From Escherichia coli (GTDB lineage Bacteria > Pseudomonadota > Gammaproteobacteria > Enterobacterales > Enterobacteriaceae), in the NCBI RefSeq assembly GCF_017348835.2, contig NZ_CP071375.1: a stretch of DNA of 64,000 nucleotides; one strand, written 5' to 3'. Below the pieces are notes generated by a model that saw nothing but the letters and a program-made list of their open reading frames with translations, searched no databases and had not been told where the DNA came from. Positions 609 to 45,976 of this stretch are shown piece after piece. Both the position numbers and the translations under genes were made by a program. The first letter of the stretch is position 1; each line of letters starts with the position of its first letter.

Positions 609-1583
609 ATGAAGCCGTCCGTTATCCTCTACAAAGCCTTACCTGATGATTTACTGCAACGCCTGCAAGAGCATTTCACCGTTCACCAGGTGGCAAACCT
701 CAGCCCACAAACCGTCGATCAAAATGCAGCAATTTTTGCAGAAGCTGAAGGTTTACTGGGTTCAAACGAGAATGTAGATGCCGCATTGCTGGAAAAAATG
801 CCGAAACTGCGTGCCACATCAACGATCTCCGTCGGCTATGACAATTTTGATGTCGATGCGCTTACCGCCTGAAAAATTCTGCTGATGCACACGCCAACCG
901 TATTAACAGAAACCGTCGCCGATACGCTGATGGCGCTGGTGTTGTCTACCGCTCGTCGGGTTGTGGAGGTAGCAGAACGGGTAAAAGCAGGCGAATGGAC
1001 CGCGAGCATAGGCCCGGACTGGTACGGCACTGACGTTCACCATAAAACACTGGGCATTGTCGGGATGGGACGGATCGGCATGGCGCTGGCACAACGTGCG
1101 CACTTTGGCTTCAACATGCCCATCCTCTATAACGCGCGCCGCCACCATAAAGAAGCAGAAGAACGCTTCAACGCCCGCTACTGCGATTTGGATACTCTGT
1201 TACAAGAGTCAGATTTCGTTTGCCTGATCCTGCCGTTAACTGATGAGACGCATCATCTGTTTGGCGCAGAACAATTCGCCAAAATGAAATCCTCCGCCAT
1301 TTTCATTAATGCCGGACGTGGCCCGGTGGTTGACGAAAATGCACTGATCGCAGCATTGCAGAAAGGGGAAATTCACGCCGCCGGGCTGGATGTCTTCGAA
1401 CAAGAGCCACTGTCCGTAGATTCGCCGTTGCTCTCAATGGCCAACGTCGTCGCAGTACCGCATATTGGATCTGCCACCCATGAGACGCGTTATGGCATGG
1501 CCGCCTGTGCCGTGGATAATTTGATTGATGCGTTACAAGGAAAGGTTGAGAAGAACTGTGTGAATCCGCACGTCGCGGACTAA
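609..1583 (+). pseudogene. ghrB: Glyoxylate/hydroxypyruvate reductase B, interrupted by an in-frame TGA at 870..872
   Basis: ORFs 597..872 and 885..1583 are in the same frame and together match the ~324-aa 2-hydroxyacid dehydrogenase; the stop sits where I recall an Arg (…[14 protein letters not shown]…). Confidence 0.7.
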
Positions 1584-1632
1584 GCCGCGACTGCGTGGAG
1601 TAAAGCCCGATAATCGCTCGGGCTTTTACTCT

Positions 1633-2343
1633 TTATTGGGTTGCAGTAACTGCTGTAGTCCAGGCCTGATTAAACGCCTGATGTTGTGCCGGTAATGGCG
1701 CAATCAGTTTGTTATATTCACTTGCCTGCTGTGAAGTCGGGAACTGGATGCCATTTGCTACAAAGCTCACCTGAGTACCTTGTTGGGCAATGTAGTCTCC
1801 AACCATCACCAGTTGTTGCGTGAAAGTTTGTGCCGCCGGAATCAACGGTTGCAATGCATCAGCTGGCGTCGTTACCACTTTGGTGAATGCCTGATCAAAG
1901 ACCGGTTTCAGGTCATCACTCTGTTTTAGCGCAGAGTGCGCAGCATCGGCCTGCAACTTCGCATTTTGCAGTTGTTGCGCCAGCACACCCAGCGAACCAT
2001 TCATTTCACGCAGCGGACCGCTTTGCGTAACGTAATCCTGCGGTACGCGAATTGCGTTAACGCTGTCTACAACCGGGCGCAGACCGGAATCCATCGCCTG
2101 ATTCACCTGCTGAGAATAACCATACAGAATCGCGTAATCAGAGACAAAAGGACCAAACTGTTTTTTCTGATCGGCAGTCAGGGTTGGTAGACGTTCACCG
2201 CTACGCATCACTGTATTCTGCAGGAAGTCGATAAACGCTTTACGCTGATCGCCTTCTTTATCAAAACACCCACTCAGGCTAACTACCATTAATAACGCCG
2301 CAAGAGGCGCAAACCAGCGAGAGCAGGACTTTCCTGTCGCCAT
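1633..2343 (-). CDS. yiaF: Putative lipoprotein YiaF (DUF3053)
   Basis: ORF 1633..2463 trimmed to the internal Met (MATGKS…) preceding a signal peptide with lipobox LSGC; 236 aa as recalled. Confidence 0.8.
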   Translation of the reverse strand: MATGKSCSRWFAPLAALLMVVSLSGCFDKEGDQRKAFIDFLQNTVMRSGERLPTLTADQKKQFGPFVSDYAILYGYSQQVNQAMDSGLRPVVDSVNAIRVPQDYVTQSGPLREMNGSLGVLAQQLQNAKLQADAAHSALKQSDDLKPVFDQAFTKVVTTPADALQPLIPAAQTFTQQLVMVGDYIAQQGTQVSFVANGIQFPTSQQASEYNKLIAPLPAQHQAFNQAWTTAVTATQ

Positions 2344-2776
2344 TTTCTTACTCCTTTCACCCAAAAAAAGCGCACAACGACACACGCGTGTCTGACGTGA
2401 CAAGGATAGTCCAGGACAGGCTTGCAGGATACCCTTTCTACGTAATCTTCCTGGTAAAATCATGGAGAAAATGAAACAAGGTTAATTTGTTGTTTCATTG
2501 TTAAAAAATGATATTGCCGTTGCTTTTTTTGTAGCCAGAGATTTACGCCTTCGCAGAAGGTTAGATTTTCGAAATCTTTACAAACCAGGAGTGGTAAGAG
2601 ATATATCGGCATTTATCAGATCGTTAGGTGGCTATAAGTCACGCTAAATGACTGGCTGAATCGAATCATAGCCAGAGCATGCCCTGACTTCACCCCGCTG
2701 TGTCTGCTTTTCCCGACTATTCTTAATGAGCTTCGATGCAATTCACGATCCCGCAGTGTGATTTGAGGAGTTTTCA

Positions 2777-24491: not shown

Positions 24492-24734
24492 GATCACCCC
24501 TTTGCACTAAAACAGCAGAGTGCCAGAGAGCGCGTCCCTACTGCTTTGATCCAACGAAGGAAATGTTAAAGTTTTGGCACTTGTCCAAAGCGTTATGTGA
24601 TCGCGCCCAGGTCATCCCTGACAGTAAATCCCAGTTCATTAGAAATAGCCTGCGCGGTTTCACGCAGAGGTTTCAGGAGATTTTTCTCTCCCACCTGTTT
24701 CAGACGTGATGTCGAAAGCGAAATCGACACGGCA

Positions 24735-25550
24735 CTACGAATTGATATGTTCCTTGCTGTAACGCCGCTTCCACGCTGCTGGCGTTAAACCGGTGTGTTT
24801 GCGAAAAATCTGCCGGAAATAGCCAACGTCATTAAACCCGCACAACGCCGCCACTTCCGTGAGCGATCGCGCTTCGCTAATTAACAGCTTTTCGGCTTCG
24901 CGCACCCGCTGGCGATGGATTGCTTCTGTTAACGTCAGATGAAACACCCGCCGGTAGACGCGCCCAAGATAATCGGCATTGCAGTACAGCTCGCGGGCCA
25001 GAAGCGCCGTAGAAAGCGGGCGATGATATTGCGTGCGGATCAGTTTCTGCGCTTTCCAGGCAAGGGTGGTGCCTGCGCCATCGGCCTGTTCATCAAGACG
25101 CGCGTCACGGGTGAGCTGCTGCAAAATGAGCAGCACAATAAACTCCAGCGCCGGAGTGCGTTGATGCTTTTCCTGTTCGCTTAAGAACTGGCGAAACAGG
25201 GCCACCAGCGCCTGCGGATCGACAACCTTCGTTTGTTGCGGCACGCTAAGATGAGTAAGCCAGCGAGGGTCGTTGTCCGGCGCTTTAACCTCAAAATGCA
25301 GCCAGTAAAATTTGAGATCGGCGGGAAAATCCTCCACCCCAACATGTTGTCGGTTCGGCCAGAGTAATAAACTCTCTCCCGCATCGACCAGAAATATCCG
25401 TTCTTCTTCCTGAATCGTTAATCGACCTTTTTCGACAAAGATAATTTCCCATGACTCCAGCCGCCTTGCAGGATGCCTCCCTACGCCACGGGAAATAAAT
25501 AATCCACCATTTTGCACTTTAATCGGTAACGTCATGGATAATTCGAGCAT
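24735..25550 (-). CDS. AraC-family transcriptional regulator (cupin N-domain + HTH)
   Basis: 271-aa ORF with C-terminal AraC HTH (…EVAALCGFNDVGYFRQIFRKHTGLTPAAWKRR); divergent from the transporter gene. Confidence 0.8.
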   Translation of the reverse strand: MLELSMTLPIKVQNGGLFISRGVGRHPARRLESWEIIFVEKGRLTIQEEERIFLVDAGESLLLWPNRQHVGVEDFPADLKFYWLHFEVKAPDNDPRWLTHLSVPQQTKVVDPQALVALFRQFLSEQEKHQRTPALEFIVLLILQQLTRDARLDEQADGAGTTLAWKAQKLIRTQYHRPLSTALLARELYCNADYLGRVYRRVFHLTLTEAIHRQRVREAEKLLISEARSLTEVAALCGFNDVGYFRQIFRKHTGLTPAAWKRRYSKEHINS

Positions 25551-25775
25551 TGATATGTAATTTCCCGCTTACTCATTAATGATTAAACACATTACCTTTT
25601 GATTATTAATCAAAAACATTAATTTCACCTGATCCATTTCACACTTTTAAATTCAGGTCGGAATCGTCACCTTTTTTTACTCTTTTCTCGCCTTGTTGAT
25701 ATTCCCGTTCACGGCAGAATTAATCAGGTCATTTCAATAAAACTAAAAATTGCTCCCTATTCACGAGGAATATCT

Positions 25776-27176
25776 ATGACCTCTACACCGATTACTACCG
25801 CTGATATCGCTAAAGGTAAAATTGACGATGCGTTATCTGTACGGGAAAAAATAGGCTACGGCCTGGGTGACGCAGGCGGCACCGTAATAACTTGCCTGAT
25901 CATGAATTTTCTCACCTTTTTCTACACCGACGTTTTTGGATTAACTCCGGCGCTGGTTGGCACGCTGTTTATTGCACTGCGCGTGTTTGATGCCATCTCC
26001 GACCCGGTGATGGGCGTCATTGCCGACCGGACGCAAAGTCGCTGGGGGCGCTTTCGTCCGTGGCAGCTATGGATTGCCATTCCCATCGGCATTATCGGCA
26101 TCCTGACGTTCACCGTGCCAGATGCCAGCATGGGAGTAAAAATCGCCTGGGCGTTCGGTACTTACCTGCTCCTTTCAGTCGGTTATACCGCCATCAACGT
26201 ACCGTACTGTGCGCTGATCAACACCATGACCACCCGCCACAATGAAGTGATCTCCTGCCAGTCCTGGCGATTCGTTCTCTGTGGCGTAGCGGGATTTCTG
26301 GTTTCGGTAGGCTTACCGTGGATGGTAGATCTCTTCGGTCAGGGTAATGCCGCGCGCGGCTATCAATTGGGCGTCGGCGTGCTGTGCGCCATTGCCGTGG
26401 TGATGTTCCTGTGCTGTTTTTTCTGGGTTCGTGAACGGGTGCCACTCTCCACAATGGGGAAATTTACCCTGCGCGAACATCTTGCCGGGCTGCGGAACAA
26501 CGACCAACTGCTGCTGATGCTGGTCATGTCTTTCCTGCTGATTAACGTCTTTAACATTCGCGGCGGTGGGTATATGTACTTCATTACCTACGTCTTACAA
26601 GGCAGTACGGGCTACACGTCGCTGTTCTTCACCATGGTCACCTTCGCCTCCATTATCGGCTCGGTGATTGTCAGCCCGTTAACGCGGCGTTTCGATACCG
26701 TCAAAATTTACTACTACACCAACCTGCTCCTCGCTGCGCTGGCGGTGTTGATGTGGTTCCTGCCCTCCGGCCCGGCTTATCAAACGCTGTGGCTGGCGGT
26801 GATCCTCGGTAATGGCGTAATTCTTGGCTTCACATTGCCACTGCACTTCTCATTGATGGCCTTTGCCGATGACTACGGCGAGTGGAAAACCCGCGTACGT
26901 TCTTCCGGCATGAACTTCGCCTTCAATCTGTTTTTCATCAAGCTGGCCTGGGCCTCCAGCGCCGGGATCATCAGCCTGCTGTTTATTTTTGTCGCCTACC
27001 AGCCTGGCGTGGAAAACCAGACCGCCAGTTCGCTTGGCGGGATCGCGGCGATGGAAACATTACTGCCTGCGCTATTCCACCTGCTGCTGGCAGGGGCGAT
27101 CCGCTTTTGCAAACTCAATAATCCTATGATGTCACGCATAGCTACCGACCTGCGTCAGCGTCATGTACAGCCTTAA
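25776..27176 (+). CDS. GPH-family glycoside-pentoside-hexuronide:cation symporter (MelB/YicJ/XylP-like)
   Basis: 466-aa 12-TM-like ORF with GPH signature region (…[25 protein letters not shown]…). Confidence 0.8.
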
Positions 27177-27186
27177 GGAGCACAAG

Positions 27187-29157
27187 ATGAACATTTCGGA
27201 AGTCGATCTGCATAAACTGACGGTCAGCGATCCGTTCCTCGGTCAGTACCAACAACTGGTCCGCGACGTGGTGATTCCTTATCAGTGGGATGCCTTGAAC
27301 GATCGTATACCAGAAGCGGAACCCAGCCATGCGATTGAAAACTTTCGCATTGCCGCCGGACTTCAGGAGGGTGAATTTTACGGGATGGTGTTTCAGGACA
27401 GCGACGTCGCCAAATGGCTGGAAGCGGTAGCCTGGTCGCTGTGCCAGAAGCCAGACGCCGAACTGGAAAAAACCGCCGACGAGGTGATTGAACTGGTCGC
27501 CTCCGCCCAGTGCGAAGACGGCTATCTCAATACTTACTTTACGGTAAAAGCGCCCGAAGAACGCTGGAGCAATCTGGCGGAGTGTCATGAACTTTACTGC
27601 GCAGGTCATCTGATTGAAGCCGGAGTCGCCTTCTTCCAGGCCACGGGAAAACGGCGCTTGCTGGGGGTCGTTTGCCGCCTGGCCGATCATATCGACAGCG
27701 TATTTGGTCCAGATGAAAGTAAGTTACACGGTTATCCTGGTCACCCGGAAATTGAACTGGCACTAATGCGCCTGTATGAAGTGACTGAAGAGCCGCGCTA
27801 CCTGGCGCTGACGAACTATTTTGTCGAACAGCGTGGTGCGCAACCGCACTATTACGACCAGGAATATGAAAAGCGCGGGCAGACATCGCACTGGCACACC
27901 TACGGCCCGGCGTGGATGGTGAAAGACAAAGCCTACAGCCAGGCACATTTGCCCCTTGCGCAACAGCAAACCGCCATCGGTCACGCGGTACGTTTTGTCT
28001 ATCTGATGACCGGCGTCGCGCATCTCGCGCGTTTAAGTCACGATGACAGCAAGCGTCAGGACTGCCTGCGGCTGTGGAACAATATGGCCCAGCGTCAGTT
28101 ATATATTACCGGCGGCATTGGCTCGCAAAGCAGCGGCGAAGCGTTCACTAGCGATTACGATCTGCCGAATGACACGGTATACGCTGAAAGTTGCGCCTCC
28201 ATCGGCCTGATGATGTTTGCCCGACGAATGCTGGAAATGGAAGGCGACAGTCAATATGCCGATGTGATGGAGCGCGCACTGTACAACACCGTGCTCGGCG
28301 GCATGGCGCTGGATGGCAAACATTTCTTCTATGTGAATCCGCTGGAAGTACATCCAAAATCGCTGAAATTCAACCATATCTACGATCACGTTAAACCGAT
28401 CCGCCAGCGTTGGTTTGGCTGCGCTTGTTGTCCGCCAAATATCGCCCGCGTGCTGACCTCGATTGGTCATTATCTCTACACGCCGCGTGAAGATGCGTTG
28501 TATATCAACATATACGCAGGAAACAGCATGGAAGTGCCGGTAGAAAATGGCACGCTGCGCCTGCGGGTTAGCGGGAACTATCCGTGGCAGGAGCAGGTGA
28601 CGATTGCGGTTGAATCGCCCCAGCCGGTACGTCATACGCTGGCTTTACGTCTGCCGGACTGGTGCACACAGCCGCAGATCATATTGAATGGGGAAGAGGT
28701 CGAGCAGGATATTCGTAAAGGGTATTTGCACATTACCCGCGAATGGCAGGAGGGCGATACGCTGAATCTGACTTTGCCGATGCCGGTACGCCGCGTTTAC
28801 GGTAACCCGCTGGTGCGTCACGTCGCCGGAAAAGTGGCGATTCAGCGCGGCCCGCTGGTGTATTGCCTGGAACAGGCCGACAACGGCGAGTCACTGCATA
28901 ATCTGTGGCTGCCCACCGATGCGCCATTTACGACATTTGAAGGCAAGGGATTGTTTAGCCATAAGATCTTAATCCAGGCACCGGGTTACCGGTATGAACA
29001 GAGCAATCCAGAGCAGCAACCGCTGTGGCATTACGACAGCGCGCCAGCCAAACGCCAGACGCAAACTCTGACCTTTATCCCGTGGTTTAGCTGGGCCAAC
29101 CGGGGTGAAGGCGAAATGCGGATCTGGGTGAATGAGGAAAAGCATTGCCATCCGTAG
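27187..29157 (+). CDS. Glycoside hydrolase family 127 (DUF1680; beta-L-arabinofuranosidase-like)
   Basis: ORF trimmed to MNISEVDLHKL… (GGAG RBS 8 nt upstream); conserved GCACCPPN cysteine motif typical of GH127. Confidence 0.7.
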   Translation: MNISEVDLHKLTVSDPFLGQYQQLVRDVVIPYQWDALNDRIPEAEPSHAIENFRIAAGLQEGEFYGMVFQDSDVAKWLEAVAWSLCQKPDAELEKTADEVIELVASAQCEDGYLNTYFTVKAPEERWSNLAECHELYCAGHLIEAGVAFFQATGKRRLLGVVCRLADHIDSVFGPDESKLHGYPGHPEIELALMRLYEVTEEPRYLALTNYFVEQRGAQPHYYDQEYEKRGQTSHWHTYGPAWMVKDKAYSQAHLPLAQQQTAIGHAVRFVYLMTGVAHLARLSHDDSKRQDCLRLWNNMAQRQLYITGGIGSQSSGEAFTSDYDLPNDTVYAESCASIGLMMFARRMLEMEGDSQYADVMERALYNTVLGGMALDGKHFFYVNPLEVHPKSLKFNHIYDHVKPIRQRWFGCACCPPNIARVLTSIGHYLYTPREDALYINIYAGNSMEVPVENGTLRLRVSGNYPWQEQVTIAVESPQPVRHTLALRLPDWCTQPQIILNGEEVEQDIRKGYLHITREWQEGDTLNLTLPMPVRRVYGNPLVRHVAGKVAIQRGPLVYCLEQADNGESLHNLWLPTDAPFTTFEGKGLFSHKILIQAPGYRYEQSNPEQQPLWHYDSAPAKRQTQTLTFIPWFSWANRGEGEMRIWVNEEKHCHP

Positions 29158-33131: not shown

Positions 33132-34670
33132 TCAGAACAGCCCCAACGGTTTATCTGAGTAGCTCACTAGCAGGCACTTGGTTTGCTGGTAATGCTCCAG
33201 CATCATCTTGTGGGTTTCGCGACCGATGCCTGATTGTTTGTAGCCGCCAAACGCCGCATGTGCCGGGTAAGCGTGATAACAGTTGGTCCACACGCGCCCA
33301 GCCTGTATGCCGCGCCCCATCTTATAGGCCAGATTACCGTTGCGGCTCCAGACGCCCGCGCCCAGGCCATATTGCGTATCGTTCGCCAGCTCCAGCGCTT
33401 CTTCCATCGTTTTGAAGGTGGTCACCGCCAGCACCGGGCCAAAAATCTCCTCCTGGAACACGCGCATATTGTTCTGACCAAACAGAATCGTCGGTTCGAG
33501 GTAGTAGCCGTCTTTCAGTTCACCTTCCAGCAGCTTGCGCCGCCCGCCAGTGAGCACGTCTGCGCCCTCTTTTTTACCGATATCAATGTAGTTGAGGATG
33601 GTTTCCAGTTGCCCGTGAGAAACCTGCGCCCCCATTTGCGTCACGCTGTCGAGTGGGTTACCGCTGCGAATGCTTTCGACACGGCGGATGGCGCGTTCCA
33701 TAAAGCGTTCGTAGATTGACTCCTGCACTAAGGCACGACTCGGACAGGTGCAAACTTCGCCCTGGTTAAAGGCAAACAGTGCAAAGCCTTCCAGCGCTTT
33801 ATCGAAAAAGGCATCTTCTTCATCCATCACATCAGCAAAGAAGATATTTGGCGACTTACCGCCCAGCTCCAGCGTCACCGGAATAATGTTTTGCGTTGCG
33901 TATTGCATAATTTGTTGGCCCACTTCCGTTGAGCCGGTAAACGCCACTTTGGCGATGCGTTTCGAGGTCGCCAGATATTCGCCAATTTCCCCACCAGCGC
34001 CATTGACCACGTTCACCACGCCCGGCGGCAGTAAATCACCGACGATTTCCATTAGCAGCAGTACAGAAAGCGGGGTAAGACGTGCGGGTTTCAGCACCAC
34101 ACAGTTGCCCGCCGCCAGCGCGGGAGCCATTTTCCAGCTCGCCATCAGCAGCGGGAAGTTCCACGGGATAATCTGCCCCACCACGCCTAACGGTTCATGG
34201 AAATGATAGGCCACGGTTTCGCTATCAACTTCACTGATCCCACCTTCCTGCGCCCGAATACACGAGGCGAAATAGCGGAAATGGTCAATCGCCAGCGGTA
34301 CATCCGCAGCACTGGTTTCGCGAATGGGTTTGCCGTTATCCCAGGTTTCAGCTGTCGCTAACAGCTCGAGGTTTTGTTCCATTCGATCGGCAATCTTAAA
34401 CAGAATCGCCGCGCGATCCTGCACCGAGGTGTGCGCCCATTTATCTTTCACTTTGTGCGCAGCATCCAGCGCCAGATCGATGTCTCGTTTGCCCGAAGAC
34501 GCCACTTCGCACAGCAGCTGCCCGGTCACCGGCGTCAGGTTCTGGTAATACTCACCATCGGCAGGGGCTACCCATTCGCCGCCAATAAAGTTGTCGTAGC
34601 GGGCTTTTAACTTGATGGGGAAACCATACTCACCGGGCTTAATCTGTGCTGAAGGGGGATTGTTGGTCAT
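33132..34670 (-). CDS. aldB: Aldehyde dehydrogenase B
   Basis: ORF trimmed to [17 protein letters not shown]… (512 aa); catalytic region present. Confidence 0.95.
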
Positions 34671-34777
34671 GATCGTCTCCTTGCGGTGTGAGGTATAACA
34701 AGGGTAGACGTGGCTGGCGAAATCTTCGCCAGTCAGTGACAGCTTTTCGACGGCAATCACGAATTTACGGGCAAGGG

Positions 34778-36073
34778 TTACAACGGATAATGCGCGACGT
34801 ACACTGCTTGCTGGTCATTAATTTTCTTCTCTTGCGCAAATCCTTCTTTAACAATCGTCCGTAAATCAGTTCGCGCTGTATTATCAGAGACGCCCAGACT
34901 CGCGCTGGTTTCAGAAACTGTGTACTCTTTCCCCGGATTGGCGAGCATCACATTCAGGAGCGTTACCTGGCGAGGATTCAGGCGTTTAAGCACACCAGAG
35001 CTAAACAGCACACTATCGAGTTTTGCGCTTCGTTGTGTAATTTCATCAATATGCTGCTGCAAGTTATGCAGAGCGCGTTTAATGACATCGGCCTGATATT
35101 CAAGGAAATAAGTCAGATCCATACCGTCTGATTCAGTGTACTGGTAGCTGGCAGCATATTTGACTGGCGCAGCATGAAGCAAACGGCTGATGGAAATATA
35201 TTTAAAGACATCGTAGCCCGATTTCAGCATATACCAGTAAAACAGCGCCCGACTGGTGCGCCCGTTGCCATCGCGAAATGGATGTTCATGGGCCAGCATA
35301 AAATGCAGAATGCAGGCACGGATTAACGGGTGAATATACCCTTCATGGCTGTTTAACCACTGGCAAACTTTTTCCAGTCGTTCCGGTAACAATGCCGCAG
35401 CGGGCGGTTGGTGCACAATATTGCCGTCATAATCGGCGATCACGACATCATCTGTTTCACGAAATTCACCTGGACGATATTTCGCGTCATTTATTCCCCC
35501 CATGCCAATGGCATGTAACTGGCGAATAAGCGCAGGTGTCAGCGGTTCTGCGAGTAAGTGCGGAATTTCCGCCATCAGCCGGGCATTTCCCGCAATCATA
35601 TGCTCGTCTTCAGTGCGTGGCGACCGTCCTGTTTCCAGCATTTTTCTCGCCACCAGCGTTGTAGTATTCGCACCTTCCAGCTGGGAGCTGGTGATCGGCT
35701 CTTCCAGGCGTAACTGGCTTAACTCGGCTCCGGCCCCGCGTAACCGTTCAGTCTGATCTTTCAGCGCCAGCGCGGTAGCACGTTTGTCGACAAGCTCGCA
35801 CGCTTCTGCAATCACCGGGGTAATGTTGAATCCGGCCTGTTCACCCGCTTCATTGCAATAATTAATTCGTTGGATCGCCGCGTTGCGCGCCAGACGGGTA
35901 AGCGTCCACGCCACATCGACGTTTTCTCCTTTTTTGATGCGGTACTGCAACTCATCAAAAGGCAGATAACGTCCTTTTTCATCGGTAACCCGGTTAAAGC
36001 GCAGGTGGGCCAGGAGTTCCTCACCCGATAAGTGTGATAAAGGAATAAGTCCGGGAGGTGATTTGATAGCCAT
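34778..36073 (-). CDS. Fic-family protein (putative AMPylator) with C-terminal winged-HTH-like domain
   Basis: 431-aa ORF carrying canonical Fic motif [12 protein letters not shown] and a candidate N-terminal inhibitory motif SSQLEG ([ST]xxxE[GN]). Confidence 0.8.
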
Positions 36074-36078
36074 GTGCT

Positions 36079-36157
36079 TATCTCAAAAAAGCGCAATATT
36101 GAGATAGTGTATAGCAGGAAAGAGAAACTATCTCAAAAAAAGCAAGTTTTGAGATAG
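36079..36157. promoter_or_regulatory. Two copies of a palindromic operator-like motif (C)TATCTCAA-N12-TTGAGATA(G) just upstream of the Fic gene start
   Basis: Read directly: arms 36080..36087/36100..36107 and 36128..36136/36149..36157, 49 bp apart. Confidence 0.6.
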
Positions 36158-36202
36158 TTGAAAAAGCGGCTGACAATTTGCCAGCCGTTGTTGGAATGAT
36201 GA

Positions 36203-37354
36203 TTACATTGCGGCGCGATAAATCGCCACAATTTCTTCGTGAGTTGCCTGGATCGGGTTAGTAAAGCCACAGGCATCTTTCAGGGCATTAGCCGCCAGAA
36301 CCGCGAAATCTTCTTCTTTCACGTTCAGATCGCGTAGGCCTGCCGGGATATCCACTTTCTTCGCCAGTTCACGGATGGCGTTAATGCAGGCTTCAGCACC
36401 TTCCGCGTCGTTTTTACCAGTCACATTCACGCCCATTGCAGCGGCACAGTCACGCAGACGTGCAGCGGCGACTTTGCTGTTGAATACCTGAACATGCGGC
36501 AGCAGAACGGCGTTACATACACCGTGTGGCAGGTTATAGAAACCGCCCAGCTGGTGCGCCATCGCATGAACATAACCCAGAGAAGCATTATTGAACGCCA
36601 TACCGGCGAGGAACTGGGCATAAGCCATTGCTTCACGCGCTTTCGCATTACTGCCATCTTCAACGGCTAATGGCAGGTTTTCGGCAATCATGGTCACGGC
36701 TTTCAGTGCGCAAGCGTCAGTGATCGGCGTAGCGGCAATAGAAACATACGCTTCGATAGCGTGCGTTAAGGCATCCATACCCGTTGCGGCGGTCAGTGAC
36801 TTCGGCATACCAATCATCAGAGAGGAGTCATTGACAGAAAGCAGCGGAGTGACATGTTTATCAACAATCGCCATTTTGATATGACGCGCTTCGTCAGTGA
36901 TGATGCAGAAACGGGTCATTTCAGAGGCCGTACCCGCCGTGGTATTGATGGCGATCATCGGCAGCTGCGGTTTTGCAGAGCGGTCAACGCCTTCGTAATC
37001 GCGAATATCGCCGCCATTGGCTGCCACCAGCGCAATACCTTTTGCGCAGTCGTGCGGAGAACCACCGCCTAAGGAGATCACGCTATCGCAATTATTTTCT
37101 TTAAGTAATTTCAAACCTGCGGCGACGTTTTCCGTGGTGGGGTTAGGTTGGGTGCCATCATAAATAATGCTAAAAATATTGCGTTCTTCCAGTGCTTTTT
37201 GCACATCGCCCGCCATACCTAATTTCGTTAACATACTGTCAGTGACAATCAATGTACGGCGAAACCCATATTCTGCCATCATATTCATTGCATCAGCCAA
37301 TGAATCAGCGCCGATGACATTCACAGAAGGAATAAAAAAGGTTGAAGCTGCCAT
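36203..37354 (-). CDS. yiaY: Iron-containing alcohol dehydrogenase
   Basis: 383-aa Fe-ADH ORF ([19 protein letters not shown]…). Confidence 0.9.
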
Positions 37355-41709: not shown

Positions 41710-44700
41710 ATGAGCGGAAAACCGGCGGCGCGTCAGGGCGACATGACGCAGTATGGCGGTAGCATTGTCCAGGGTTCAGCCGGGGTGCGCATCGGTGCCC
41801 CCACCGGCGTGGCCTGTTCGGTGTGCCCCGGCGGGGTGACGTCCGGCCATCCGGTCAATCCGCTGCTCGGTGCAAAGGTCCTTCCCGGTGAAACCGACAT
41901 CGCCCTGCCCGCCCCGCTGCCGTTCATTCTCTCCCGCACCTACAGCAGTTACCGGACAAAAACGCCCGCGCCGGTGGGGAGCCTCGGCCCCGGCTGGAAA
42001 ATGCCTGCGGATATCCGCTTACAGCTGCGCGATAACACACTGATACTCAGTGATAACGGCGGCAGAAGCCTGTATTTTGAGCACCTGTTTCCCGGTGAGG
42101 ACGGTTACAGCCGCAGCGAATCACTGTGGCTGGTGCGCGGCGGCGTGGCGAAACTGGATGAAGGTCACCGGCTGGCCGCACTCTGGCAGGCGCTGCCGGA
42201 AGAACTCCGCTTAAGTCCGCATCGTTATCTGGCGACAAACAGTCCGCAGGGGCCGTGGTGGGTACTCGGCTGGTGTGAGCGGGTGCCGGAAGCGGATGAG
42301 GTGCTGCCTGCGCCGCTGCCGCCGTACCGGGTACTGACCGGGCTGGTGGACCGCTTCGGGCGCACACAGACGTTCCACCGCGAAGCCGCCGGTGAATTCA
42401 GCGGCGAAATCACCTGCGTGACGGATGGTGCCGGGCGTCACTTCCGGCTGGTACTGACCACGCAGGCGCAGCGGGCAGAAGAAGCCCGGCAGCAGGCCAT
42501 TTCCGGCGGGACGGAACCGTCCGCTTTTCCTGATACCCTTCCGGGTTACACCGAATATGGCCGGGACAACGGCATCCGTCTGTCTGCCGTGTGGCTGACG
42601 CACGACCCGGAATACCCGGACAACCTGCCAGCCGCGCCGCTGGTGCGCTATGGCTGGACGCCGCGCGGCGAACTGGCGGCAGTGTATGACCGCAGCAATA
42701 CACAGGTGCGCAGCTTTACTTACGATGATAAATACCGGGGCCGGATGGTGGCGCACCGTCACACGGGCCGACCGGAAATCCGTTACCGTTACGACCGCGA
42801 CGGGCGGGTGACAGAACAGCTAAACCCGGCAGGCTTAAGCTACACGTATCAGTATGAGAAAGACCGCATCACCATCACCGACAGCCTGGACCGCCGTGAA
42901 GTGCTGCACACGCAGGGCGAAGGCGGGCTGAAGCGGGTGGTGAAAAAGGAACACGCGGACGGCAGCGTCACGCAGAGTCAGTTTGACGCCGTGGGCAGGC
43001 TTAAGGCACAGACAGATACGGCAGGCCGGACGACTGAGTACAGCCCGGATGTGGTGACGGGACTCATCACGCGCATCACCACACCGGATGGCAGGGCATC
43101 GGCATTTTACTATAACCACCACAGCCAGTTAACGTCAGCCACCGGGCCTGACGGGCTGGAATTGCGCCGGGAATATGATGAATCCGGCCGTCTGATTCAG
43201 GAAACTGCACACAACGGCGATATCACCCGCTACCGTTATGATAATCCACACAGTGACTTACCCTGCGCAACGGAAGATGCCACCGGCAGCCGGAAAACCA
43301 TGACGTGGAGCCGTTACGGCCAGTTGCTGAGCTTCACCGACTGTTCCGGTTATGTAACCCGTTATGACCATGACCGCTTCGGGCAGATGACGGCGGTGCA
43401 CCGCGAGGAAGGGCTGAGTCAGTACCGCGCATACGACAGCCGTGGACAGTGAATTGCCGTGAAAGACACGCAGGGCCATGAAACGCGGTATGAATACAAC
43501 ATCGCCGGTGACCTGACCGCCGTCATTGCCCCGGACGGCAGCAGAAACAGGACACAGTACGATGCGTGGGGAAAGGCCGTCCGTACCACGCAGGGCGGGC
43601 TGACGCGCAGTATGGAATACGATGCTGCCGGACGGGTCATCCGCCTGACCAGTGAAAACGGCAGCCACACCACCTTCCGTTACGATGTACTCGACCGGCT
43701 GATACAGGAAACCGGCTTTGACGGCCGCACACAGCGTTATCACCACGACCTGACCGGCAAACTTATCCGCAGCGAGGATGAGGGGCTGGTCACCCACTGG
43801 CACTATGACGAAGCAGACCGCCTCACGCACCGCACCGTGAATGGCGAAACCGCAGAGCGGTGGCAGTATGATGAACGCGGCTGGCTGACAGACATCAGCC
43901 ATATCAGCGAAGGGCACCGGGTGACGGTGCATTACGGGTATGATGAGAAAGGCCGGCTGACCGGTGAGCGTCAGACGGTGCATCACCCGCAGACGGAAGC
44001 ACTGCTCTGGCAGCATGAGACCAGACACGCTTACAACGCGCAGGGGCTGGCGAACCGCTGTATACCGGACAGCCTGCCCGCCGTGGAATGGCTGACCTAC
44101 GGCAGCGGCTGGCTGGCAGGCATGAAACTCGGCGACACACCGCTGGTGGAGTACACCCGCGACCGCCTGTACCGGGAAACGCTGCGCAGATTCGGCCGTT
44201 ATGAACTCACCACCGCTTACACCCCTGCCGGGCAGTTACAGAGCCAGCACCTGAACAGCCTGCAGTATGACCGCGATTACACCTGGAACGACAACGGCGA
44301 ACTCATCCGCATCAGCAGCCCGCGCCATACCCGGAGTTACAGCTACAGCGACTCCGGCAGGCTGACCGGCGTTCACACCACGGCAGCGAACCTTGATATC
44401 CGCATCCCGTATGCCACGGACCCGGCAGGTAACCGCCTGCCCGACCCGGAGCTGCACCCGGACAGCACCCTCAGCATGTGGCCGGATAACCGTATCGCCC
44501 GTGACGCGCACTATCTTTACCGGTATGACCGTCACGGCAGACTGACAGAGAAAACCGACCTCATCCCGGAAGGGGTTATCCGCACGGATGATGAGCGCAC
44601 CCACCGGTACCATTACGACAGTCAGCACCGGCTGGTGTACTACACGCGGACACAATATGCAGAGCCGCTGGTCGAAAGCCGCTATCTTTACGACCCGCTG

Positions 44701-45888
44701 GGCCGCAGGGTGGCAAAACGGGTATGGCGACGTGAACGGGACCTGACGGGCTGGATGTCGCTGTCACGGAAACCGGAAGTGACCTGGTACGGCTGGGACG
44801 GCGACCGCCTGACCACAATACAGAACGACAGAACCCGCATCCAGACGATTTATCAGCCGGGGAGCTTCACGCCACTCATCAGGGTTGAAACCGCCACCGG
44901 TGAGCTGGCGAAAACGCAGCGCCGCAGCCTGGCGGATGCGCTTCAGCAGTCCGGCGGCGAAGACGGTGGCAGTGTGGTGTTCCCGCCGGTGCTGGTGCAG
45001 ATGCTCGACCGGCTGGAAAGTGAAATCCTGGCTGACCGGGTGAGTGAGGAAAGCCGCCGCTGGCTGGCATCGTGCGGCCTGACTGTGGAGCAGATGCAAA
45101 ACCAGATGGACCCGGTGTACACGCCGGCGCGAAAAATCCACCTGTACCACTGCGACCATCGCGGCCTGCCGCTGGCGCTTATCAGTGCGGAAGGGGCTAC
45201 AGAATGGTGCGCAGAATACGATGAATGGGGCAACCTGCTGAATGAAGAGAACCCGCATCAGCTGCAGCAGCTTATCCGCCTGCCGGGGCAGCAGTATGAT
45301 GAGGAGTCCGGCCTGTATTACAACCGCCACCGCTATTATGACCCGCTGCAGGGGAGGTATATCACTCAGGATCCGATTGGGCTGAAGGGGGGATGGAATT
45401 TTTATCAGTATCCGTTGAATCCGATAACTGATATTGACCCGTTGGGATTAGCGACCTGTTTATACAGCATAACTTTAAGTATGCTTTCATGCGTTTCAGA
45501 TACGCAAAATGATGATAACTCTTATGATGTGCTTACTATTCCTGTCGCCTCTGGTAATAATGGTAATAATATGCAATGTAAAAATAATCCTGGTTGTACA
45601 CACTTACAAAATAGAGGTCCAATACCTCAAGGGGTATGGAGCTGGAATGTTAATGGTCCTGGAGCAACCAATAGAAAACCTAATGGTATACGTTTAGTAC
45701 CGTCAGCAAATACAGAAACATATAATCGTGATGGATTTTTAACACATAGTTGTTTAAACGCTTTCGGTCCGTCTTTAGGACCTCGATTCTGTTCCGAGGG
45801 TTGTATAACTGGTTCATCTAATGACATGCAAAAATTAAATGAGTTAATATTTTCAGAGCCAGATAGCACATTAACAGTTACGGACTAA
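41710..45888 (+). pseudogene. rhsA: Rhs polymorphic toxin RhsA with YD repeats, divergent C-terminal tip, and an in-frame TGA at 43450..43452
   Basis: ORFs 41710..43452 and 43459..45888 are in the same frame; N-terminus MSGKPAARQGDMTQYGG…, YD-repeat core and PxxxxDPxGL boundary ([11 protein letters not shown]) read directly; the stop replaces a Leu as I recall K-12 RhsA. Confidence 0.75.
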
Positions 45889-45976
45889 AAAATATGGCAA
45901 AGTTATTAACAATTGTATTTTTTTCTCTATTTCTGCGAGTGCAGTTACTGCAAGACAATTTCAGAGAGAGTTAGAT

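Follow-up and report, generated by a model that had tools for sequence, protein, structure and literature searches.

The stretch of DNA considered here, called the window below, consists of 64,000 nucleotides of Escherichia coli (NCBI RefSeq assembly GCF_017348835.2, contig NZ_CP071375.1), and the element in question is a gene, fic, which lies on its minus strand between yiaY (36203..37354) on one side and aldB (ATG at 34670) on the other, and which carries two palindromes directly upstream of its start codon (Table 1). RefSeq annotates the product as 'Fic family protein'. The original prediction for this locus had described a 431-aa open reading frame (ORF) with an intact Fic active-site motif, a candidate N-terminal autoinhibitory motif, a helix-turn-helix (HTH)-like region at its C-terminus and twin operator-like sites. 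All of these elements were recovered, and both palindromes are exact copies; only their spacing, given as 49 bp, had to be changed trivially, since the two starts are 50 bp apart. The Pfam Fic domain (PF02661, the Fic/Fido AMP-transferases) matches residues 177-281 (E=1.4e-19), and the catalytic motif lies within it. It is to be noted that the inhibitory motif resides on the same chain as the Fic motif, 130 residues N-terminal of it; the protein is assigned to class II because its inhibitory Glu motif precedes the Fic motif in this manner. Across 52 homologues, H264, P265, F266, D268, G269, N270, G271, R272 and R275 of the catalytic motif and S129, Q131, L132, E133 and G134 of the inhibitory motif are invariant. 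Therefore, the enzyme is under selection.

Table 1. Features of the fic locus, with positions counted from the first letter of the window.
Feature	Position	Strand	Remarks
fic gene	34778..36073	minus	ATG start at 36073, TAA at 34778; 431-aa ORF
N-terminal domain, ~residues 1-100	35774..36073	minus	three helices, a beta-hairpin, then a helix
Inhibitory-helix motif S129-S-Q-L-E133-G134 (class II alpha-inh)	35672..35689	minus	regex match to [ST]xxxE[GN]
Fic catalytic motif, H264-275	35249..35284	minus	fits HxFx(D/E)GNGRxxR perfectly
C-terminal winged HTH	34793..34975	minus	AlphaFold2 model, weak Pfam HTH_DeoR match and half-site covariation
Predicted recognition helix, residues 397-409	34847-34885	minus	AlphaFold2 model
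Proximal operator O1 (putative)	36079..36106		TATCTCAA-N12-TTGAGATA, exact; ends 5 nt before ATG
Predicted sigma-70 promoter of fic	36108..36136	minus	-35 TTGAGA 36136..36131, 17-nt spacer, -10 TATACA 36113..36108
Distal operator O2 (putative)	36126..36159		core TATCTCAA-N12-TTGAGATA at 36129-36156
yiaY intrinsic terminator	36167..36187	minus	9-pair stem with 6 GC pairs, then CTTTTTC; upstream edge of the fic module
Segment missing from K-12-type E. coli	34783..36150		1,368 bp: the whole of O1, O2 without its outer arm, and the fic ORF without its final 5 nt

Profiles recognize the C-terminal part of the protein weakly (Pfam HTH_DeoR/HTH_5 at residues 376-413; HTH_DeoR E=0.0096), and its shape was taken from an AlphaFold2 model built on 52 homologues, which reached a mean local confidence (pLDDT) of 89 and a global score (pTM) of 0.85. 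In this model, a helix of residues 115-132 terminates in the SSQLEG motif and is followed by the Fic core, and then a long helix (321-359) precedes a winged HTH (wHTH) made of helices 367-378, 386-393 and 397-409 and a two-strand wing (413-417 and 423-427). A Foldseek search placed the model on SoFic (3eqx/3zcn) with template modelling (TM) scores of 0.69-0.72 over ~350 columns, covering both the Fic and wHTH parts, at a probability of 1.00. The same probability was obtained for CbFic2 (8cil), for FICD and for a 380-aa Fic protein (7xux), presumably CccR as judged by length and release date; further matches were Fic proteins of Desulfovibrio and Mycobacterium. Among family models, the PADLOC SoFic model PDLC03963 matches residues 96-427 at E=9.5e-44 over profile positions 30-351 of 361 (89% of the model), while the NCBIfam collection gave sub-threshold Fic-type models only, including weak VbhT and Doc, and no named equivalog. 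The N-terminal domain is without counterpart in SoFic, CccR and CbFic2; where the Fic-wHTH group dimerizes via an N-terminal helix, the fic product has another and larger domain. Its profile matched 156 clusters among 1.84 billion representatives; it stands at the N-terminus in nearly all of them, and the full-length matches are Fic-sized, ~420-500 aa. No informative second architecture came out of this search, the domain being confined to the Fic subfamily and short fragments, and three long repeat-protein matches (P0148, P0198 and P0202) look spurious. As judged from sequence and model, the fic product is a class II Fic enzyme of the Fic-wHTH group with an intact catalytic motif.

What, then, are the two palindromes for? 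The arms of O2 are perfect over 13 nt (36126-36138 and 36147-36159, 100% complementary). When up to two mismatches are allowed, O1 and O2 are the sole matches in the window, where 0.02 are expected, and two or more matches appeared in none of 100 shuffles. The downstream arm of O2 supplies the predicted -35 hexamer, and the predicted -10 box abuts O1; thus, the predicted transcription start falls inside O1. The CTATA(C/A) box at O1 and the TTGAGA in O2 are both kept in E. albertii, Pseudescherichia, Pantoea and Salmonella. A promoter scan also picked up TTGAGA-17-GACAAT on the plus strand, which uses the same palindrome and points toward the yiaY terminator, and this was regarded as a by-product of the palindrome. 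It is to be noted as well that the sole Shine-Dalgarno-like purines in front of fic (GAGA) sit in the ATG-side arm of O1, that is, within TTGAGATA.

More telling is the behavior of the palindromes when the gene changes its place. Homologues of fic are found next to quite different genes: in Pseudescherichia (76% identity) among unrelated neighbours, in Pantoea (72%) near an AbiEi gene, in Salmonella (71%) in a region like an integrative and conjugative element with AcaB and DUF3158, in Photorhabdus (67%) adjoining ParE and HicAB, in Klebsiella (49%) on a phage-like element with a DUF927 primase, and in Pectobacterium (46%) adjoining an integrase on an integrase island. In all of these six genera and in E. 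albertii (46-94% identity), 5-7 nt separate the end of TATCTCAA-N12-TTGAGATA from the ATG, the copies of Klebsiella and Pantoea having one or two mismatches, and a second copy lies 49-50 bp upstream in Pseudescherichia, Pantoea, Salmonella and E. albertii. As a whole, homologues with 40-76% identity in unrelated contexts have this palindrome at this distance. Wherever exact twin copies exist (18 loci), their spacing is always 49 or 50 bp. When the 120 nt upstream of 50 family loci were tested for any palindrome whose arms match at 9 or more positions, 36 loci had one, against 6% of dinucleotide shuffles and 1 of 50 coding-region controls. A metagenome scan with the exact 16-base pattern returned 12 twin copies, 11 of them in front of fic and the remaining one in front of a fic remnant. 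Most single-copy matches in the same scan have no fic nearby and were taken as chance hits in a very large collection; besides the twin copies, six single-copy matches are informative.

Distant relatives, including those of Bacteroidota and Archaea, also have one or two palindromes of similar geometry, with other half-sites. The half-site reads TATTTCAA, also written (T/C)ATTTCAA, in P. syringae, CTGTCTCAA in other Pseudomonas, AACTACTAA in Hymenobacter, TATCTATCAA in Methanosarcina, Methanoculleus and Methanolobus, ATCCTAA in Verrucomicrobia and GCGAGATT in Flavobacteria. Groups defined by the half-site also have in common the residues that directly precede T-A-R, which is conserved in the recognition helix: SDNTAR goes with TATCTCAA, SNFTAR with GCGAGATT, SNQT(A/G)R with TTTCCAAAT, (Y/H)QTAR with ATCCTAA and AY(G/A)TAR with CTATCAA. 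Such covariation between helix and half-site is the pattern to be expected of a self-recognizing repressor. Nothing credible was found when a partner, antitoxin or leader ORF was looked for on either side of fic. Because no other ORF travels with the gene, its own wHTH is the only conserved candidate for the binder. The comparison thus supports the view that the twin palindromes behave as cis-regulatory sites belonging to fic, as had been proposed at the outset: they accompany it from one context to another with their distance to the ATG unchanged, their half-sites vary in step with residues of its recognition helix in distant relatives, and they overlap its predicted promoter.

Two loci met in this survey deserve mention for themselves. 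On a human-gut metagenome contig (OQNO01000384, Enterobacteriaceae; L105 2700-2960), adjoining fosA, the operators at 2835-2862 and 2884-2911 are both preserved, the fic ORF ends after 34 codons (…SRVTDDKG, then HRV and a stop), and an unrelated 446-aa ORF with an HEYAH motif (1332..2672) follows the remnant on the same strand. It appears that the cargo has been swapped while the fic promoter was kept. In Xenorhabdus khoisanae (L012 6206-7216), a shorter Fic + HTH gene of 336 aa is located two genes from the 454-aa homologue; thus, two Fic-wHTH paralogues can co-occur at one locus.

Could the palindromes instead work chiefly at the RNA level, as hairpins for termination, attenuation or translational control at the yiaY 3′ end or in the fic leader, with their four arms pairing 1:2 and 3:4, or 2:3? 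A terminator scan does list O2 as terminator-like, with 13 pairs and then a T-rich tail, the inner arms are also complementary to each other (10 nt with an 18-nt gap), the proximal arm keeps its distance to the ATG in all close homologues, and the predicted fold of the fic leader (-12.8 kcal/mol, z=-1.9; 6 of 200 shuffles fold as well) pairs the GAGA/AUG region. However, what is conserved in the arms is the sequence itself, beyond mere pairing, while the loops vary freely in sequence and stay fixed at 12 nt, and the proximal site of Pantoea has two changes, TATCGCAA and TTGAGGTA, that do not compensate each other. Spacing of the inner 2:3 pair drifts from 17 to 19 nt, while the N12 is invariant. 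Since O2 overlaps the predicted -35 box, it would not be transcribed from the predicted fic promoter at all, and the same geometry recurs in Archaea and Bacteroidota, in which translation-initiation signals often differ. An Rfam scan of 34600-36400 at E<=1 gave no match. A function at the DNA level is preferred because of the conserved arm sequence, the Pantoea changes, the position of O2 upstream of the predicted start and the geometry in Archaea and Bacteroidota; a mainly RNA-borne role seems improbable to us, although a secondary, translational role for O1 is possible.

Still less probable is that the palindromes are operators of another host regulator, or that the Fic-wHTH protein serves first of all as a transcription factor for a wider regulon, its enzyme activity being incidental. 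It is true that the wHTH is a generic DNA-binding fold and that a related protein, CccR, changes expression of other genes (PMC9755527). Nevertheless, the operators accompany fic into hosts as far apart as Photorhabdus, Pseudomonas and methanogens and vary together with the recognition helix, no third copy exists within the window, and every twin copy in the metagenomes stands at a fic promoter, one of them that of a remnant; moreover, invariance of the catalytic and inhibitory residues shows selection on the enzyme. Least probable of all is that the product is, instead of an intracellular defence or toxin module, a secreted interbacterial effector and signal delivered by a type VI secretion system (T6SS) like CccR of Yersinia pseudotuberculosis, with which it shares the Fic + HTH layout, and of which palindrome-based self-repression and FtsZ AMPylation are known (PMC9755527), because, even with a gene for an RHS core protein ~5.6 kb away within the window, no T6SS genes are annotated in the ~42 kb retrieved around fic (20 kb each side; the neighbours are aldB, yiaY and selBA), its homologues elsewhere adjoin toxin-antitoxin, AbiEi, integrase or phage-like genes rather than T6SS clusters, the identity to 7xux is merely 18-19%, the operator is two copies with N12 here against one copy with N26 for CccR, and the N-terminal domain is missing from CccR.

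How did the gene come to lie between aldB and yiaY? The original prediction spoke of a strain-specific insertion, and both words have to be replaced. Among complete E. coli genomes, 1,572 of 5,426 (~29%) have fic, and the carriers include O157:H7, O145:H28, E2348/69, SE15 and ABU 83972, so that the gene is lineage-specific instead. In E. coli it is always chromosomal and nearly always single-copy, and it lies between aldB and yiaY where the locus was examined; on plasmids, merely relatives of its product with 40-61% identity were found. In K-12-type genomes, which account for most of the sampled non-carriers, aldB and yiaY are direct neighbours with a 164-bp spacer, in accordance with the original prediction. 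The junction of this empty site reads GGGTTACA followed by GAGATAGTT, in which TGTAA (coding strand), the final 5 nt of the ORF with its stop codon, is joined to the outer arm of O2; the yiaY terminator is also retained there. This deletion scar was found in at least 3,158 complete genomes, MG1655 among them. E. albertii has an orthologue with 94% amino acid identity and both operators, placed directly upstream of aldB. The ratio of nonsynonymous to synonymous substitution rates (dN/dS) is 0.07-0.08, and dS to E. albertii is 0.33, values which indicate vertical descent under purifying selection. Because of the synteny with E. albertii and the deletion scar, fic is regarded as ancestral in Escherichia and not inserted, and the K-12-type lineage looks like having lost 34783..36150 in a single event.

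Taken together, we hold with considerable confidence that fic is a one-gene, self-regulated, toxin-like Fic-wHTH module, which is ancestral and was deleted once in the K-12 lineage. Its functional part is well supported by comparative evidence and precedent: very probably, the fic product switches off its own promoter via the two palindromic sites. A dimer would bind each 28-bp operator via two wHTH domains, the centres of the half-sites TATCTCAA and TTGAGATA being 20 bp apart. Occupancy of O2 would cover the -35 hexamer, and that of O1 would cover the transcription start and the 5′ leader, so that RNA polymerase would be excluded if either site is occupied. Such repression of its own promoter would keep the Fic level low and constant. 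In the mRNA, a hairpin of O1 may pair the GAGA of the ribosome-binding site and work as a second, translational brake, not as the main function. As homology suggests, a signal might then release the Glu133 latch, and the freed enzyme would AMPylate an essential cell protein, leading to growth arrest. As for the purpose of such a module, the most likely biological role by analogy is phage defence of the abortive-infection type, which we would put at no better than an even chance.

It might further be possible, though we think it rather unlikely, that the proteins of 430-455 aa make up a distinct Fic-wHTH subfamily, spanning Enterobacteria to methanogens, and that each member is a portable cassette of promoter, twin operator and toxin, whose N-terminal domain serves as a sensor to free the enzyme from both DNA and auto-inhibition. 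The trigger would be, for example, phage infection, and de-repression and toxin activation would become one coupled switch, comparable to the control of CbFic2, with an operator arm that doubles as the ribosome-binding site. The metagenome contig with the truncated fic hints that the regulatory front end of the cassette is reusable.

Several points weigh against these interpretations and have to be set beside them. The promoter and transcription start of fic were predicted by eye, and a consensus promoter scan did not list this promoter, which is because TATACA lacks the T required at position 6. Phylogeny confounds the covariation between helix and half-site, to which shared ancestry contributes as well. 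Identity to characterized or solved Fic-wHTH members is just 17-20% in the Foldseek alignments, and the NCBIfam SoFic equivalog NF046030 scores 40.3 bits against a cutoff of 550; therefore, the fic product should be called a relative of SoFic, not its orthologue. The defence reading rests on one hidden Markov model and suggestive neighbours in other genera, while in E. coli itself fic is located among core metabolic genes rather than in a defence island. In a phage collection, no close homologue was found, the matches having at most 37% identity over partial length.

Some observations concern the surroundings of the gene. When the segment 34400-36500 was compared with 5,357 matching genomes, two were at least 99% identical, the best being the pig isolate PE164 (100%), nearly all others were 95-97% identical, and 339 were at 90-95%; the window thus comes from a sparsely sampled E. 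coli lineage. In E2348/69 (L002 1-1771), araD/sgbE is located 47 bp from aldB, where the window and K-12 have yiaT-yiaU-yiaV-yiaW. Thus, aldB has a variable junction on either side in E. coli. In the leader and promoter region of aldB (34711-34735), an inverted repeat of 11 nt, TGGCTGGCGAA / TTCGCCAGTCA, is kept in K-12 and E. albertii. As a result of the K-12 deletion, the yiaY terminator and half of O2 are now ~110 nt or less from the aldB ATG, and the deletion might affect upstream regulation of aldB. Farther away, at ~24593-29157 of the window (L215 10194-14758 in the PE164 annotation), a remnant of an IclR-family regulator (C-terminal fragment) is followed by genes for an AraC-family regulator, a major facilitator superfamily transporter and a GH127 glycosidase; in K-12, this place is occupied by yiaJ and the yiaK-S operon. 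The RHS core protein gene mentioned above is followed by a frameshifted immunity gene of the Imm57 family (~41710-46414; L215 27311-32015).

The meaning of the locus lies in several directions. It offers a concrete putative operator for an uncharacterized Fic enzyme, a 28-bp site in two copies on a predicted promoter, and the enzyme belongs to a good part of the species, O157:H7 and several extraintestinal pathogenic and enteropathogenic E. coli lineages included. K-12 provides a natural clean deletion host for fic. Pairs of helix and half-site across phyla form a small natural data set for the DNA-recognition code of the Fic-associated wHTH. In addition, the evolutionary reading has been corrected: the laboratory lineage lost a gene, and no pathogen gained one.

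How does fic compare with known systems? Nothing was found in the literature on a locus of yiaY, aldB and Fic, and the comparison has to be made with relatives in other places. One of the closest is CccR (YPK_0951) of Y. pseudotuberculosis, a 380-aa Fic + HTH dimer that represses its own gene, AMPylates FtsZ at Thr8 and is toxic through AMPylation, and whose footprint, AGATAATCAT-N26-ATGATAATCT, lies close to the -35 and -10 boxes of its promoter (PMC9755527). Both are class II Fic proteins with an N-terminal inhibitory motif, a C-terminal HTH and an inverted repeat at their own -35/-10, and the layout of the fic promoter, with the predicted -35 inside O2 and the predicted -10 next to O1, is conserved in homologues. 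In contrast to fic, CccR has the single AGATAATCAT-N26-ATGATAATCT instead of two TATCTCAA-N12-TTGAGATA copies, is shorter by lacking the ~100-aa N-terminal domain, and is secreted and adjoins a T6SS effector cluster, a context absent around fic.

In structure, the Fic and wHTH parts are matched best by SoFic (SO_4266 / MloA) of Shewanella oneidensis, also a class II protein with an inhibitory Glu, whose dimer binds the stretch of 100 bp that precedes its own start codon and which AMPylates switch I of EF-Tu (bioRxiv 10.64898/2026.07.09.737422). The SoFic-like architecture of Fic, long helix and C-terminal wHTH is seen in the AlphaFold2 model and in the whole-chain alignment to 3eqx/3zcn, but SoFic has 372 aa, is devoid of the N-terminal domain and is 17-19% identical. 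SoFic-type proteins are reported to be single-gene anti-phage systems (Millman et al. 2022, preprint 10.1101/2022.05.11.491447), and EcSofic from E. coli H397 is toxic when de-repressed and has a 47-aa downstream antitoxin gene, AS1 (PMC12249575). The fic product resembles this type as a standalone Fic, a single gene matched by the PADLOC SoFic model, and differs from EcSofic in that the latter is a shorter protein with catalytic His 194 and an 82 kDa dimer, against His 264 here. No AS1-like gene exists in the 107 nt from the fic stop to the aldB ATG, a stretch common to K-12 that holds spurious ORFs of 20-58 aa only.

CbFic2 of Coxiella burnetii also combines Fic with a C-terminal HTH, and its DNA binding through the HTH regulates the AMPylase/deAMPylase activity (PMC10628234). 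Its structure 8cil is the top Foldseek match by E-value, but CbFic2 is a secreted effector acting on host histone H3, has 380 aa and is 20% identical to the fic product. Finally, the Fido-fold toxin is also transcriptionally autoregulated in class I FicT/FicA and Doc/Phd modules. These modules consist of two genes, with the inhibitor and DNA-binder on a separate antitoxin, while fic has both on one polypeptide and no partner ORF. Thus, as far as sequence comparison and analogy with these systems can tell, autoregulation of fic would be of a documented kind, appearing here in an uncharacterized subfamily with a different operator design, and what seems distinctive to fic is its N-terminal domain together with a twin N12 operator in which the proximal arm is at the same time the predicted ribosome-binding site.

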